DNA of 64,000 bases from Escherichia phage JM10. Positions 14,121 to 61,945 of the stretch are shown in pieces. Both the position numbers and the translations under genes were made by a program. Location of the stretch: sequence record PP400777. The stretch is one strand, 5' to 3'. The notes under the pieces are model-generated. The model saw only the letters and a program-made list of their open reading frames with translations. It did no database searches and was not told where the DNA came from. The first letter of the stretch is position 1, and the number at the start of each line of letters is the position of its first letter.

Positions 14121-14615
14121 TCACAACTTATTAATATTTACTTTAATTCGCTTTCTTTTCTTGGAATGAATTTGTTCGGGGCCTTTATTTACGACTGCAC
14201 CTGTAGTTGTTCCTGATGCAATAGCTTGAGGGCTGCCACCTGAATCGCCAGCAACCATATCCTCAAATAAAGGGAGCTCTTTAAATATTTCTTTCTGTTG
14301 TTCTTCCGTAATGTTATAGCGTGAAGCTACAGCACTCCAGGCAGACATCATTGAGGCCATTCCATTAAGACCTGGAACAGTGCTCATCATTCGCTTCATT
14401 GAACGAACTGAAGCATGAAAAGGTGTATACGCCGCTTTCTCTTCGGGAGTGGAAGGGCGTTTAAGAACACTTCCACGTTCATCGATGATTTTGGCTTCAT
14501 ATGCTTTCCATTCGGTAAAAGGTTTTTGCATTAGTCGAATAAACTTATATGCGTAAACAGAATCTATTGCAGTGTTAATAATACCCATAGGTACCTCCTG
14601 AGTATATTTAATCAA
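14121..14615 (-). CDS. hypothetical protein, 164 aa (61.1 position)
   Basis: ORF track. Confidence 0.55.
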   Translation of the reverse strand: MIKYTQEVPMGIINTAIDSVYAYKFIRLMQKPFTEWKAYEAKIIDERGSVLKRPSTPEEKAAYTPFHASVRSMKRMMSTVPGLNGMASMMSAWSAVASRYNITEEQQKEIFKELPLFEDMVAGDSGGSPQAIASGTTTGAVVNKGPEQIHSKKRKRIKVNINKL

Positions 14616-14805
14616 TTACAAAGATTGCTTTGTCGCCATTTATATCTGTGACTTCATATGTAGTGCCTTCATACTGTGGAATATTCCAAATTACACCATC
14701 ATTAGCTTTTACGCTAATATGGTATTGGTGTTTTGAAACAACTTCATAATCTTCAAAACTTGTAAAAACACTAATTTTAGAACCAGTGCAAATTGCAGTA
14801 GTCAT
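14608..14805 (-). CDS. hypothetical protein, 65 aa
   Basis: ORF track. Confidence 0.45.
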   Translation of the reverse strand: MTTAICTGSKISVFTSFEDYEVVSKHQYHISVKANDGVIWNIPQYEGTTYEVTDINGDKAIFVID

Positions 14806-14806
14806 T

Positions 14807-15466
14807 TTAACCTCGATTCATAAATGCATTAAATATTTGGTCATCAACAGAAATTTCTAATTCGACTTCAATTGCTTCAGCCTTTTCTTCAAGTGGTAAT
14901 TCGTATCCACACACTACAATTTTTTCATCGATATCAAAATATACAGAAGCAATACGATTAATGTTATTTTCAGTTAAGTCTAAATCAACATCAACATCTT
15001 TTTGACCTACACTTAAAGGATAACTAATACGGGTTATTTTATTATCTTTAACAAAGAGACCACCAACATACTCTGTACTACGTTTGAAGTTTACACGTTT
15101 CCGAAATGAAAGATATGAGGCATCTTTACCATGAGCCCTGCTCATAGGACATAATGAATAGCTAGAATAAGAGATGTCAAATCCTACACCTTCAATATGA
15201 GCCAACGCGCCATGATTAAACCAATTATAATCATATGCCAAATCCATTATATTGTAATATGTGAAAGGCACAGGATTAACATCATATGTTGTACCTTTAA
15301 AATCTGCCCAGGCAACGATTTCGTTATCTTTAACAATTACAAAAATTACACCAATATGGTATCCGTTATTATTTTCATTCGGCGTTATATTATAACATTG
15401 CGCATTAGGAAATTTACCATATTTAAATGGCGCATTTTTGTGCATATAATAAATCATATTATTCAC
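14807..15466 (-). CDS. hypothetical protein, 219 aa (61.2 position)
   Basis: ORF track. Confidence 0.55.
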   Translation of the reverse strand: MNNMIYYMHKNAPFKYGKFPNAQCYNITPNENNNGYHIGVIFVIVKDNEIVAWADFKGTTYDVNPVPFTYYNIMDLAYDYNWFNHGALAHIEGVGFDISYSSYSLCPMSRAHGKDASYLSFRKRVNFKRSTEYVGGLFVKDNKITRISYPLSVGQKDVDVDLDLTENNINRIASVYFDIDEKIVVCGYELPLEEKAEAIEVELEISVDDQIFNAFMNRG

Positions 15467-49505: not shown

Positions 49506-50507
49506 TTATTTCAGTAAAGTTACTTCAGAGATTTCCTCCCAACCATCTTTATCAGTTGAAATAAAATCTGCTACATAAAGAGCCGTACGTAATGATACAT
49601 TGCGAAGACGAGATACGTTAGCCTTCATCCAGGACAATGCTTTATACGTTTCTGCATCCGTCAGACCACGTTTCTGCATCATGTCAGTAGATAATATTAC
49701 ATCTTCAACTCGAACCATAATCTCTTCATTAGAGTGTACTCCAAGGTCCAAATACACTGAACGAGATACTAAAGCTTGAAGGTGTGGAGCAAGTTTAGAA
49801 CCGCGTTCTAACTCTTTATCGATATCAACGTTTGTAATGAAAACGATAGTACCTTCAAACTCAAATTCTTTATCAATACCCTTATCATCGAGATAAGATG
49901 ACGCAGTGCTCCAACAAACTTTGCGTTTATCTCCGGTATCTAATGCTGCTTTAAGAAGGTTCAAGATGTCCATATCTGAGAATACGTCAACGTCGTCGAT
50001 TAAGAGAACGCTGTCTGCATCACGGTTGAGCCAAAGTTGTTCGTAAAGGCCGATACCAGAGATTTTACCATTAATGCTTTTGTATTTGATGAAACCATTA
50101 TCATTAGCATTATTAAGCGCTTTATCCAGAGAATACGTCTTACCAATACCGGCTGCACCTGAAATAATGAGTGAACGAATTTTGCCATCAATAATGCCAT
50201 TCGTCATCATGTTCATTACTTTAAAGCGTTTGTTGATACGAGTTTTCATATCTTCAGTGCTTTCAACAACTGCAACCGGTGACGTCTCAACTCCTTCCAT
50301 TACGATGTCTGATTTGAAGACCCATACTCCACGTTCAGAACCATCAATCATAACGAAAATTTTACCATCACCTAAGTGGGAACATTCAGGATTAAGCTTT
50401 GCCGGGAACCAGGTCTTTGTGGCGACATAAGAACCAGAGATTTCGTTATTACGGTAGATACCTTTTTTGATTTGAACGTTGAACATTTTATTCTCCAATT
50501 TACTCAT
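49506..50507 (-). CDS. P-loop ATPase (AAA-like), 333 aa
   Basis: Walker A ISGAAGIGKTYS; Walker B VLLIDDVDVF. Confidence 0.6.
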   Translation of the reverse strand: MSKLENKMFNVQIKKGIYRNNEISGSYVATKTWFPAKLNPECSHLGDGKIFVMIDGSERGVWVFKSDIVMEGVETSPVAVVESTEDMKTRINKRFKVMNMMTNGIIDGKIRSLIISGAAGIGKTYSLDKALNNANDNGFIKYKSINGKISGIGLYEQLWLNRDADSVLLIDDVDVFSDMDILNLLKAALDTGDKRKVCWSTASSYLDDKGIDKEFEFEGTIVFITNVDIDKELERGSKLAPHLQALVSRSVYLDLGVHSNEEIMVRVEDVILSTDMMQKRGLTDAETYKALSWMKANVSRLRNVSLRTALYVADFISTDKDGWEEISEVTLLK

Positions 50508-50774: not shown

Positions 50775-50882
50775 TTTGTTCTCCTCTTGTTTTGATAGGT
50801 CTATAATAACATATCCTAAAAGCATGTACACTACTTTTTAAAAATATTTTGACCCCCTAAAGGGACCCGAAGGTCCCCACAT

Positions 50883-51164
50883 TTACTTATCGCACTTAGC
50901 AACATAATTAGGCATATCACAGAATACGGAGCGAGTAACTACTCGACCCTTTGACCATGCTTCAGTTGCTTGTCCGGCCGTGCTATTAATATAGCTTGAT
51001 TTAATGTTCTCAATACCCTGAGAATGTGATGCATTTACCGAACCATTAGAAGGCCCAGAAGTCTGGTTACCACCAGCTCCTGTACTACCGTTGGCTGCAC
51101 CCGTGGTAGCACCAACAGAGAATGCCATCATTACTGCGAATAAACCAATTACTAATTTTTTCAT
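50883..51164 (-). CDS. secreted Gly/Ser-rich small protein with signal peptide, 93 aa
   Basis: MKKLVIGLFAVMMAFSVGA signal; late promoter TATAAATA 33 nt upstream. Confidence 0.55.
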   Translation of the reverse strand: MKKLVIGLFAVMMAFSVGATTGAANGSTGAGGNQTSGPSNGSVNASHSQGIENIKSSYINSTAGQATEAWSKGRVVTRSVFCDMPNYVAKCDK

Positions 51165-51195: not shown

Positions 51196-52182
51196 TTATT
51201 TATAGTAAGAATTATGATTTTCGAGATAGACTTGCTCAAGGAAATCATCCCAGAAACTCATATCTACTTTTTGTTGCATACCATTCTTGGCAGCTTGTTC
51301 CGATGCTTGTTCAACTTGGTCAACGATATCTTCTAGGAATTCTTGTACAGTTTTAAACGTATGTTTACCAAGCTTAACATCGAGAATAAATGGAGCATCC
51401 TGAAGTGGGTAAACCAGGTCGCCGGTTTTGTAAATTTCCAATAATTGAAGTCCACCACGACATGCATGACTCAATGCTTTCCAGTCAATACCTTCGTTGG
51501 CTTCAGCCTTACGAGCACGTTCGCCATAGTTCTCTTCCAGTTTAACCAGGATGGCATTGAACTCTTTATTGGTTAACGTATCTTGGAATTTACGGTCTAA
51601 CAGATTATAGAATGTTTGCTTACCTGTTTTCTCGTTTTCGGTTTCAACCCACGAAGCAAATTCACCTACAGGCAGAACATTCTTCATATGTGATAAACGA
51701 ATTACTGCACCATTATCAAAGTATTGTCCCCATTCATTAGAACGTTTAAGGGCTTGACGAAGAACAGCCAGTCGAGAACCCTTGACACCGTATTTAGAAG
51801 CTTGCTTACGGACATACCCTAAATAAGATTTCATGTTAGTGGTATAGAAACGAGACCTGTTATCTTGAATATACTTCCATACATCAGGCAAATCAGATTT
51901 AACTACTAGACTTTGTGGAGTGTGAAGCATATCTAATGCGACGGTTTCACCATCCGCAGCTAGTTTAAAGAAATATTTGAGACTATATAACTCATGGTCC
52001 ACGTCGTCTTTTGTGTTCTTAGAAGATGTGTTATTCGTGTTCTTGCTCATGTGTTCTTTAACGTTACCGGACAAGATATCACGAGCATGAGGGACATAAA
52101 TTTCTTTAAAATCGACGTCAGATTCAGGAGTAGACGTTCCATAAAGGTGGCTACCAAAGTAAGCCTTAACAATCGTTTTCAT
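51196..52182 (-). CDS. nucleotidyltransferase (Pol-beta superfamily) with C-terminal helical domain, 328 aa
   Basis: N-terminal YFGSHLYGTSTPESDVDF (G-S...D-x-D) and third acidic residue in VALDMLH. Confidence 0.55.
   Translation of the reverse strand: MKTIVKAYFGSHLYGTSTPESDVDFKEIYVPHARDILSGNVKEHMSKNTNNTSSKNTKDDVDHELYSLKYFFKLAADGETVALDMLHTPQSLVVKSDLPDVWKYIQDNRSRFYTTNMKSYLGYVRKQASKYGVKGSRLAVLRQALKRSNEWGQYFDNGAVIRLSHMKNVLPVGEFASWVETENEKTGKQTFYNLLDRKFQDTLTNKEFNAILVKLEENYGERARKAEANEGIDWKALSHACRGGLQLLEIYKTGDLVYPLQDAPFILDVKLGKHTFKTVQEFLEDIVDQVEQASEQAAKNGMQQKVDMSFWDDFLEQVYLENHNSYYK
51197..51204 (-). promoter_or_regulatory. late promoter TATAAATA upstream of the secreted-protein gene
   Basis: Plus tatttata at 51197-51204. 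Confidence 0.5.
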
Positions 52183-52580
52183 TATTTAGCCTTATATTCA
52201 AGAGTAGGACAGACTTTTTCTTTACGAGCTTTAAGGTATTCACCTATTAATGATTTCTTACGTTCAATAGGCTCAAGTCCATTTTTAATTCGTTCTTGGT
52301 TTTGCGCAATGAGCTCAATTTCTTTATAATATTTTCTGTCGTTATATTTGTCTAACAACCAAGACGGACCAATTACTAACCCGGTAGCAATAAAATCCAT
52401 GACTGCTACAATTAAAATGCCTAAACCAATTGAAGCCGGAACTAATGTCCATAGACTGCTAAAAACAAAGAATTTAGTTAAAATTTCCTGGCAAATGATT
52501 GTGACTGCTGCTAAAATCACAAATCCAATAATTGAAGCAGCCAATACCGGGATTAACGTTTTCCAAAAATAAGCACACAA
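52182..52580 (-). CDS. membrane protein, about 3 TM; start codon uncertain (track ORF begins at TTG)
   Basis: TM segments LIPVLAASIIGFVILAAVTIIC and LGILIVAVMDFIATGLVIG; stop overlaps the NTase start. Confidence 0.4.
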   Translation of the reverse strand: MCAYFWKTLIPVLAASIIGFVILAAVTIICQEILTKFFVFSSLWTLVPASIGLGILIVAVMDFIATGLVIGPSWLLDKYNDRKYYKEIELIAQNQERIKNGLEPIERKKSLIGEYLKARKEKVCPTLEYKAK

Positions 52581-52664
52581 CGTTTTCGGACGATTCTATG
52601 TACTATTGAACGCGGTATAAAGTTTAAAGTGCCAAGAGTTTTCATTGATAATCATAATAATTCC

Positions 52665-53207
52665 TTATTTCAAAGTTGGGATAATAGAATCGAGATAAGC
52701 TTTAAGAGCAACTGCCTCATCTTTGTCTAATGTAATGATATGTTGACGAAGGTCATCAATTTGGCGAATAACTACGACATCACCATCTTCATAAGAAGGA
52801 TTAACGCCTAGGACTGTTGTATAGTCAGGGCGGTCCTGATTTGTAATAAAAGCATTACGGCATTTAGCCCATTGAAGTTTGGCCTTTTTGGCTGTTTCAG
52901 ATTCCATGAATTCTTTCACCTTAGTGACAAATGTTTTCCAATTATTAATAGAAAAACATTCATCTTCGGTTTCGATATTAACCCCACTATAAAGTCCGTG
53001 ATAAAAACGAACTTGAAGGTCTTCATCAATGTTAATTACAGATGCATGACCCGGTGGATTGAGTTTCAAAATCTTGTCTAGTTCCATAGGAAGAATAGTA
53101 ACAACATCATCTTCTTGCGTCAGAACGTACGCATAACCACGTTTTTCGATACATAAATCACCAAACAACTCAGTCGTTTCAATTACAGTTTTCATATTAT
53201 TCACCAA
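52665..53207 (-). CDS. hypothetical protein, 180 aa
   Basis: ORF track. Confidence 0.55.
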   Translation of the reverse strand: MVNNMKTVIETTELFGDLCIEKRGYAYVLTQEDDVVTILPMELDKILKLNPPGHASVINIDEDLQVRFYHGLYSGVNIETEDECFSINNWKTFVTKVKEFMESETAKKAKLQWAKCRNAFITNQDRPDYTTVLGVNPSYEDGDVVVIRQIDDLRQHIITLDKDEAVALKAYLDSIIPTLK

Positions 53208-53425: not shown

Positions 53426-53464
53426 GGTAGGACTACTATAACATAGTCCTACCAAGTTGTAAAC
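53426..53464 (-). promoter_or_regulatory. early promoter with perfect 10-bp palindrome flanking the -10
   Basis: Plus ggtaggacta-ctataaca-tagtcctacc; -35 GTTTAC at 53459-53464. Confidence 0.5.
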
Positions 53465-61231: not shown

Positions 61232-61472
61232 CTCGGTCCAATGATTTGGCCATTAATTCGGACATAAATTCTTCAAGGCGCGTTTCTTTAGATGGACTTT
61301 CACTATTAGAGATCGCAAGTTTGTAATCTGCAATAGGACAGAACATATCAAGGTCCATATTAAGGTCGTCTTTGATTTTTTCTTCTGACACATCTTTATC
61401 GTATGTGTACAGATAACTATCACATGATTCTGATTTAATGTAAATTGCTATACTCATCTCAAATTCCTGCAT
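61221..61472 (-). CDS. hypothetical acidic protein, 83 aa
   Basis: ORF track. Confidence 0.45.
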   Translation of the reverse strand: MQEFEMSIAIYIKSESCDSYLYTYDKDVSEEKIKDDLNMDLDMFCPIADYKLAISNSESPSKETRLEEFMSELMAKSLDRDDE

Positions 61473-61945
61473 TCGGTAATAAAACGTTCAACTTCATTAT
61501 TCTTGGCTTTTATCTTGTCTTTATGTTCTTGTAAACTACTTTTAATAAGATTAATAATGATGCCTACAGTACCTCCACCAATAATACCACCAATAATACT
61601 TACAATAGTAGATGATAATAAGATAGCGATAATATCTAGTACAGCAAAGGCACTTACTTTAGTACTAAAAAACCATACCGACGGTACAAATATAATCCAT
61701 CCTGTTATCCATTGGCACTTATTGAAAAACTTTTCAAGCTCAGCTTGGGTTGTTCGTATTACTTCATCGATAGGTTGATATCCATTAATGTATCTGTTCA
61801 CGATAATACCTGCTGGTTTGTCGATTTTAAATGCTTGACAATGGTGTTTCACTAAGTAGGATGGACATCCTGTCCAATCTACTGAATAGTATGAAATACC
61901 TTCGTCGCCATCGCCCATGTTTGACCAGTGAATTTTCTGTATCAT
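61454..61945 (-). CDS. membrane protein with Gly-zipper TM region, 163 aa
   Basis: TM IIFVPSVWFFS... and IIGGIIGGGTVGIIINLI. Confidence 0.5.
   Translation of the reverse strand: MIQKIHWSNMGDGDEGISYYSVDWTGCPSYLVKHHCQAFKIDKPAGIIVNRYINGYQPIDEVIRTTQAELEKFFNKCQWITGWIIFVPSVWFFSTKVSAFAVLDIIAILLSSTIVSIIGGIIGGGTVGIIINLIKSSLQEHKDKIKAKNNEVERFITECRNLR

Follow-up and report, generated by a model that had tools for sequence, protein, structure and literature searches.

Two overlapping genes on the minus strand of Escherichia phage JM10 (sequence record PP400777) raise the question of whether they work as a pair. One encodes a 328-residue nucleotidyltransferase (NTase) and the other, directly upstream, a small membrane protein. 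They were first noticed at positions 51,196–52,580 of the 64,000-nucleotide (nt) stretch that was analyzed, hereafter the window, and both open reading frames (ORFs) are present there; all genes of the region lie on the minus strand. An original prediction, made from the sequence alone, took them for a coupled pair that could be an exclusion or anti-defence module, of an architecture recurrent in signaling-based defence systems and toxin-antitoxin modules. By sequence, the NTase is of an already known kind, an RlaP-family enzyme and the ortholog, in a Mosigvirus, of T4 NrdC.11. As an NrdC.11-type RlaP, it is probably an accessory counter-defence RNA-repair enzyme and not a signaling enzyme. 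The membrane gene is a common but non-obligate neighbor, and its frame is interrupted here by a stop codon.

Identity and active site of the nucleotidyltransferase

About 3 kb around the NTase locus share 96–97% identity with many RB69-group (Mosigvirus) T4-like phages. The NTase, which begins MKTIVKAYFGSHLYGTSTPESDVDF, is 78% identical to T4 NrdC.11 over its full length, with an 8-residue length difference around residues 150–165. Its position in the order tk - rI - mobD.x - nrdC.11 - nrdC.10 matches that of the T4 gene. Its match to the Pfam RlaP model (PF10127) scored 50.2 bits (cutoff 23; E 3.7e-13), and phrog_388 "nucleotidyltransferase" was matched with an E value of 3e-125. RlaP scored above the Pfam threshold in 68 of 69 diverse NTase homologs tested singly, and a precomputed PF10127 match is present on all close homologs. 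An exhaustive HMMER scan placed the homologs in 3,306 clusters at 50% identity; among the best 150 of these clusters nearly all are full-length. The RlaP match and the orthology with NrdC.11 bear out the assignment to the Pol-beta-type nucleotidyltransferases.

The CD-NTase, MNT/AbiEii, OAS and CCA-adding families had been named in the original prediction as those to search, and none matched. Pfam gave no match of the NTase (E up to 1) or of the 69 homologs to CD-NTase, SMODS or OAS models, and none to CCA-adding or poly(A) polymerase (PolyA_pol head-domain) models. AbiEii models did not match the NTase, and PADLOC defence models matched neither the NTase nor its family. NCBIfam MntA (13.3 bits, cutoff 60) and Pfam NTP_transf_2 (13.6 bits, cutoff 21) stayed below threshold with the NTase, and the 69 homologs gave, besides RlaP, only weak, sub-threshold matches to generic NTase domains. 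Sequence and profile searches of PDB chains found no related protein, and no HEPN-like neighbor was seen among the ORFs of the window.

Little of this identity is new, as the protein is a database-annotated T4 NrdC.11 ortholog and the biochemistry of its family has just been described. Many GenBank and UniRef records call NrdC.11 orthologs "thioredoxin" although Pfam assigns them to RlaP, apparently because the gene name nrdC.x was carried over. The correct name for these proteins would be "RlaP-family RNA nucleotidyltransferase".

Residue conservation was counted in the 69 diverse homologs, and an AlphaFold model was built on the same number of sequences. Invariant residues are G10, S11, S21, D22, D24, D62, Y131, R222, K235, R242, K270, and G272. 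The model is confident (predicted local distance difference test [pLDDT] 93.8, predicted template modeling score [pTM] 0.83). The NTase has the parts of the Pol-beta signature: hG[GS], Dh[DE]h and, on the core strand that comes next, a probable third carboxylate. The minimal signature by which the 328-residue ORF was first recognized is therefore upheld by the invariance of G10-S11, D22 and D24, and both aspartates are placed at the beginning of the modeled strand 23–30. The third acid had been placed in the motif VALDMLH. This residue, D84, is Asp in 65 of the 69 homologs and lies in a modeled helix (residues 80–86). D62 is the most likely third catalytic carboxylate by strand topology, because it is invariant (69/69) and is modeled on strand 61–67, the canonical position for this residue.

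The C-terminal part, described originally as about 220 residues of helical sequence, is indeed mostly helical in the model (about 230 residues), with a three-strand beta insert at 176–200 that the description had missed. The invariant basic residues R222, K235, R242 and K270 sit in this helical domain. The modeled succession of NTase domain, helical domain and terminal helix resembles the Pseudomonas enzyme PfRlaP, a comparison made with the published description of the PfRlaP layout only. The basic residues may likewise fit the positively charged RNA cleft described for PfRlaP.

The upstream membrane-protein gene

The upstream ORF had been taken from a mechanical ORF list, in which it runs from 52182 to 52580 with a TTG start and encodes 132 residues. 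It matches phrog_944 "membrane protein" (profile E 3e-35), in the C-terminal part only. The match is partial because the family frame starts at an ATG at 52655 and a TAG splits it at codon 20 (Table 1). The TTG at 52580, given originally as an uncertain start, is thus not the real one; it is an artefact, since the nonsense codon interrupts the frame upstream of it. Codon 20 is TGG in 7 of 7 close relatives. The TAG allele is absent from the 156 phage records that match a 121-nt stretch (best 98.3% identity), and the TAG-bearing 23-mer was not found in IMG/VR. Apart from the stop, the frame is 98% identical to intact 157-residue Mosigvirus proteins. An intact gene of that length is found in all relatives with a near-identical NTase, and the other copies examined are also intact, whereas this genome's copy carries the TAG. 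Barring a base-calling error at the TAG, this copy is most likely a nonsense allele. A full-length membrane protein is probably not produced here, which points to a loss of function of the gene in this genome. The original prediction had made the pair depend on translation of the upstream ORF, which the amber codon interrupts; by that criterion the pairing breaks down here.

The upstream ORF nevertheless represents a real, conserved family of phage inner-membrane proteins, encoded separately from the NTase. A word-limited search, unlike the HMMER scan at 50% identity used for the NTase, gave 64–77 clusters of the family at 90% identity. Some members of phrog_944 are extended at the N-terminus by about 100 residues. 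The family alignment contains an N-terminal motif, I-N-x-x-S-W-H ... P-x-S-L-C-x-Y-F-W, and a C-terminal motif, K-A-[RK]-K-x-K-x-C-P; H9, C27, Y29, K147 and C149 are invariant. The protein is hydrophobic. Where two or three transmembrane (TM) helices had been suggested, hydropathy and the model agree on two. The model, of moderate confidence (pLDDT 78.7), contains a two-TM helical hairpin, residues 26–65 and 68 to about 100, whose second helix runs on to residue 124. Strand 2–4 pairs with strand 153–155 in this model, and the N- and C-terminal motifs would therefore form one small domain. Sequence and profile searches of PDB chains found nothing similar. A 163-residue ORF elsewhere in the window (61454–61945, minus strand) has a weak match to the membrane-family profile (E 5e-4) and no Pfam match; it is either a distant paralog or a chance hit.

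The association of the two genes was examined in 79 IMG/VR loci with RlaP homologs of 40–98% identity, which were searched with the membrane-family profile. Neighborhoods were tallied for the 73 loci that allowed the start of the NTase gene to be located. In 11 of them the membrane gene adjoins the NTase gene, in 19 one gene and in 11 two or more genes lie between, and in 32 it is absent. The separating genes in the 30 loci that have them are unrelated. A count based on the directly upstream ORF alone had given the membrane gene in only about 11 of the 79 loci; the profile search overturned it, finding the gene in about 41–44 loci with variable spacing. The membrane gene is therefore a frequent neighbor of the NTase gene and not an obligate one. 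Upstream of RlaP, divergent membrane homologs are still found in several phages, among them a Tequatrovirus and an Acinetobacter phage. The order vs - tk - rI - ... - nrdC.11 is kept at these divergent loci, and the upstream position therefore reflects shared synteny.

In T4, the profile search found no membrane homolog within 18 kb. The gene for the HNH homing endonuclease MobD lies directly upstream of nrdC.11, in the slot that follows mobD.1 and that the membrane gene occupies in JM10 (14430–15209 of the T4 locus, L002). This arrangement suggests that the mobile element displaced the membrane gene in T4.

The start of the NTase gene does overlap the stop of the upstream frame, as first noticed, with one base shared in TAATG. 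The NTase ATG is preceded, 7 nt upstream, by a weak AAGG Shine-Dalgarno sequence. Stop/start overlaps of 1 or 4 nt with the NTase gene occur in 47 of the 73 loci, and in 36 of these 47 the upstream gene is not the membrane gene. As the overlap occurs whatever the upstream gene, it is ordinary T4-type gene packing and not evidence for a module.

Other arrangements were also seen. Two loci, L096 (5001–5459) and L089 (5001–5321), have membrane-family genes with no RlaP gene within 5 kb. Neither appears T4-like; one has a GmrSD_N neighbor and the other is a 387-kb contig. A 305-residue ORF that follows the L096 membrane gene was considered as a divergent NTase and rejected. At three further loci, L060, L062 (3657–4004) and L064 (3645–4004), a single-TM ORF of 115–119 residues overlaps the RlaP start by 4 nt. 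Each of these phages has an RlaP of about 47% identity, and the single-TM ORF is unrelated to the 157-residue family.

Proposed role and alternatives

A December 2025 preprint assigns T4 NrdC.11 to RlaP cluster 5 (PMC12776372). According to the same source, the two Pseudomonas enzymes PfRlaP and PaRlaP add one or two nucleoside monophosphates to RNA 3'-OH ends, prefer Mn2+ and the 5' half of a cleaved-tRNA mimic, and are inactive on DNA and protein. These two enzymes can partly restore aminoacylation of a tRNA missing one anticodon-loop nucleotide, and the product can be used directly by T4-type 5'-phosphate ligases. The Pseudomonas RlaPs are encoded in RtcB-RtcA RNA-repair operons, and the authors propose RlaP as an antidote to "smart" ribotoxins such as RloC (PMC12776372). 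In jumbo phages, the distribution of RlaP mirrors that of RNA ligases (reviewed in PMC7824862). The nrdC.11-mobD.3 block of T4 can be deleted (PMC9825161), which is what an accessory gene of phage-host conflict would lead one to expect.

The phage enzyme and the Pseudomonas RlaPs belong to one Pfam family, and in both a Pol-beta NTase domain that contains three conserved Asp residues forms the N-terminal part. It differs in belonging to sequence cluster 5 and not 1a and in having no RNA ligase gene adjacent to its own, and its likely partner would be a 5'-phosphate ligase (Rnl1) and not RtcB. By family membership and analogy with the bacterial enzymes, its substrate would be RNA, with damage of the RloC type. 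In broken RNA the NTase would extend the 3'-OH end by one or two untemplated nucleotides, notably in tRNA halves that an RloC-type host anticodon nuclease has also robbed of a nucleotide. Resealing into a full-length tRNA would then fall to the phage polynucleotide kinase (Pnk) and Rnl1. In the close relative SA79RD, RNA ligase A and the pseT region are encoded elsewhere in the genome. A role in phage-host conflict in preference to replication, as originally suggested, is on this account the likeliest one, judged from the RlaP family.

Several observations weigh against this proposal. The activity of phage RlaPs is extrapolated from Pseudomonas enzymes of another sequence cluster, and the Pfam RlaP model covers only the N-terminal 130 residues of the NTase (6–136). 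No RNA ligase or kinase gene was found in the NTase transcription unit. In a Pfam survey of 100 neighbor proteins at distant phage RlaP loci, RNA ligases accounted for 2, and RNA-repair genes were not strongly enriched. T4 NrdC.11 is likewise without RNA-repair neighbors, yet the literature files it in RlaP. Upstream of the NTase gene and on its strand, the membrane gene lies no more than 2 kb away in 41 of the 73 loci, Acinetobacter phages included, so that a looser functional link between the two may exist. The TAG may stem from an error in sequencing, or from a minority variant that became fixed on assembly.

The clearest phage-side link of RlaP to RNA-repair enzymes among the loci examined was seen on a divergent T4-like metagenomic contig (L088, 2351–9008). 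It carries, in this order, genes for an Rnl2-type ligase, an Rnl1-type ligase, a membrane-family protein, Thy1, an AAA_33 kinase and RlaP. The kinase gene overlaps the RlaP gene, and the two ligase genes lie 3–5 kb off.

Instead of repairing tRNA, the NTase might act alone on another substrate, by RNA tailing or tagging, by adenylylation of a small molecule or protein in the manner of ANT/KNTase, or by tRNA 3' CCA repair. The bacterial RlaPs label many cellular RNAs with little nucleoside triphosphate specificity (PMC12776372), and the NTase neighborhood has no recognized RNA-repair gene. Such a role is still unlikely, since the Pfam membership is RlaP-specific with generic NTase domains only sub-threshold, CCA-adding and poly(A) polymerase families are unmatched, bacterial RlaPs do not label protein or DNA (PMC12776372), and the invariant basic residues of the helical domain would fit the RNA-binding cleft of PfRlaP as described. 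It is rather unlikely, too, that the membrane gene is still expressed, through an error at the TAG, suppression by the host, or a restart at the TTG that keeps translation coupled to the NTase. The change is a single G to A in an otherwise intact frame, 137 codons after the TAG stay open, the start-capable TTG lies 15 nt downstream of it, and the 474 nt of the gene differ from most close relatives at 10–22 positions. Set against this, no Shine-Dalgarno sequence precedes the TTG, a restart there would drop the invariant or nearly invariant S7-W8-H9, and no tRNA gene was found in the window, which is therefore without a suppressor tRNA.

A functional link between the two proteins was weighed by comparison with Hailong, in which a membrane ion-channel gene is followed by an NTase gene (PMC13434031). 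HalB (PDB 9dbh; 217 residues) is described as priming oligo-dA on its own tyrosine (Tan et al. 2025, via PMC13434031), and HalA as an ion-channel domain plus a DNA-binding crown. By analogy, a nucleotide or oligonucleotide signal made by the phage NTase could gate its membrane neighbor, and the pair could serve as an exclusion module or as a decoy by which a host HalA-type channel stays shut. The gene order is the same, and in 41 of 73 phage loci the membrane gene precedes the NTase gene on its strand. This reading is nonetheless highly improbable. The NTase has no sequence or profile similarity to HalB, with which it has the Pol-beta fold in common, and the membrane protein resembles HalA in neither sequence nor fold. 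The C-terminal tail of the NTase is unconserved in the 69 homologs, with no conserved C-terminal Tyr for priming, and PADLOC has no match for the family. The two genes do not form an obligate two-gene operon as in Hailong: one to three genes lie between them in 30 loci, 32 loci and T4 are without the membrane gene, and L096 and L089 have it but not the NTase gene. The NTase family has 3,306 clusters (50% identity), and the membrane family gave 64–77 (90% identity, from the different, word-limited search). It is very unlikely, more generally, that in T4-like phages the conserved two-TM protein and RlaP are real functional partners, the former perhaps as a membrane-anchored sensor or regulator of RNA-damage repair, or as a gated, Hailong-like channel that an NTase product holds in check. 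A signaling, exclusion or toxin-antitoxin pair is thus unsupported, given the RlaP membership, a membrane gene that is no fixed partner and an overlap that is generic. An RNA-repair enzyme of the NrdC.11 type remains the favored identity of the NTase.

Transcription unit and implications

The transcription unit appears to run from small ORFs through a MobD.1-like gene, the membrane gene and the NTase gene to a 93-residue ORF (Table 1). The MobD.1-like gene is the next one upstream of the membrane frame. The 93-residue ORF, placed between the NTase gene and an NrdC.10-like gene, has a high content of Gly, Asn and Ser and is a "hypothetical protein" in relatives. Only a sub-threshold, YbgS-like match was found for it. 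T4 differs in having no such secreted-protein gene downstream of nrdC.11, and its slot is empty. The promoter assignment is weak, because promoter-like sites in the region are no commoner than in shuffled sequence. Beyond the terminator-like hairpin, the 333-residue NrdC.10-like protein (49506–50507, minus strand) contains a Walker A motif, GAAGIGKT. Its AAA/STAND matches are sub-threshold, and the name "helicase loader" that it bears in some records has no clear basis.

Table 1. Features of the nrdC.11 region of phage JM10, in window positions
Feature	Position	Strand	Evidence or remark
Terminator-like hairpin	50851..50867	-	Rho-independent terminator annotated at the same place in SA79RD
93-aa ORF with signal peptide	50883..51164	-	Downstream of NTase; last gene before terminator
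NTase gene, 328 aa	51196..52182	-	ORF; T4 nrdC.11 ortholog; RlaP (PF10127) Pol-beta nucleotidyltransferase family
D84 of NTase (VALDMLH)	51931..51933	-	D in 65/69; helix 80-86 in model
D62 of NTase, probable third carboxylate	51997..51999	-	69/69, strand 61-67
NTase catalytic core	51997..52155	-	Invariant in 69 homologs; secondary structure from AlphaFold model
D24 of NTase	52111..52113	-	Invariant
D22 of NTase	52117..52119	-	Invariant
G10-S11 of NTase	52150..52155	-	Invariant
TAATG junction	52180..52184	-	Membrane-frame stop and NTase ATG share one base
Membrane-protein frame, 157 codons, phrog_944	52182..52655	-	SA79RD alignment, translation, family searches, model; stop at codon 20
TTG, codon 26 of true frame	52578..52580	-	Start in mechanical ORF list; no Shine-Dalgarno
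TAG (amber), codon 20 of membrane gene	52596..52598	-	TGG (Trp) in relatives
AAGGA Shine-Dalgarno of membrane gene	52662..52666	-	6 nt upstream of ATG 52655..52653
MobD.1-like gene (T4 y05I family), 180 aa	52665..53207	-	Pfam T4_y05I_N E 2.7e-41, T4_y05I_C E 1.5e-19
Early-type promoter-like site	53435..53463	-	TTTACA, 17 nt spacer, TATAGT; TG before second hexamer

The two-TM proteins with invariant His and Cys are an uncharacterized family, conserved among T4-like phages that infect several hosts. A nonsense allele in this phage would mean that the membrane gene is dispensable for propagation. If the partnership with RlaP were true, T4 and the amber-carrying phage would be natural knock-outs. 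For the enzyme itself, T4-like phages pair RlaP with Pnk and Rnl1, and would thus provide a natural system in which RlaP is set against RloC "cut-and-trim" nucleases.

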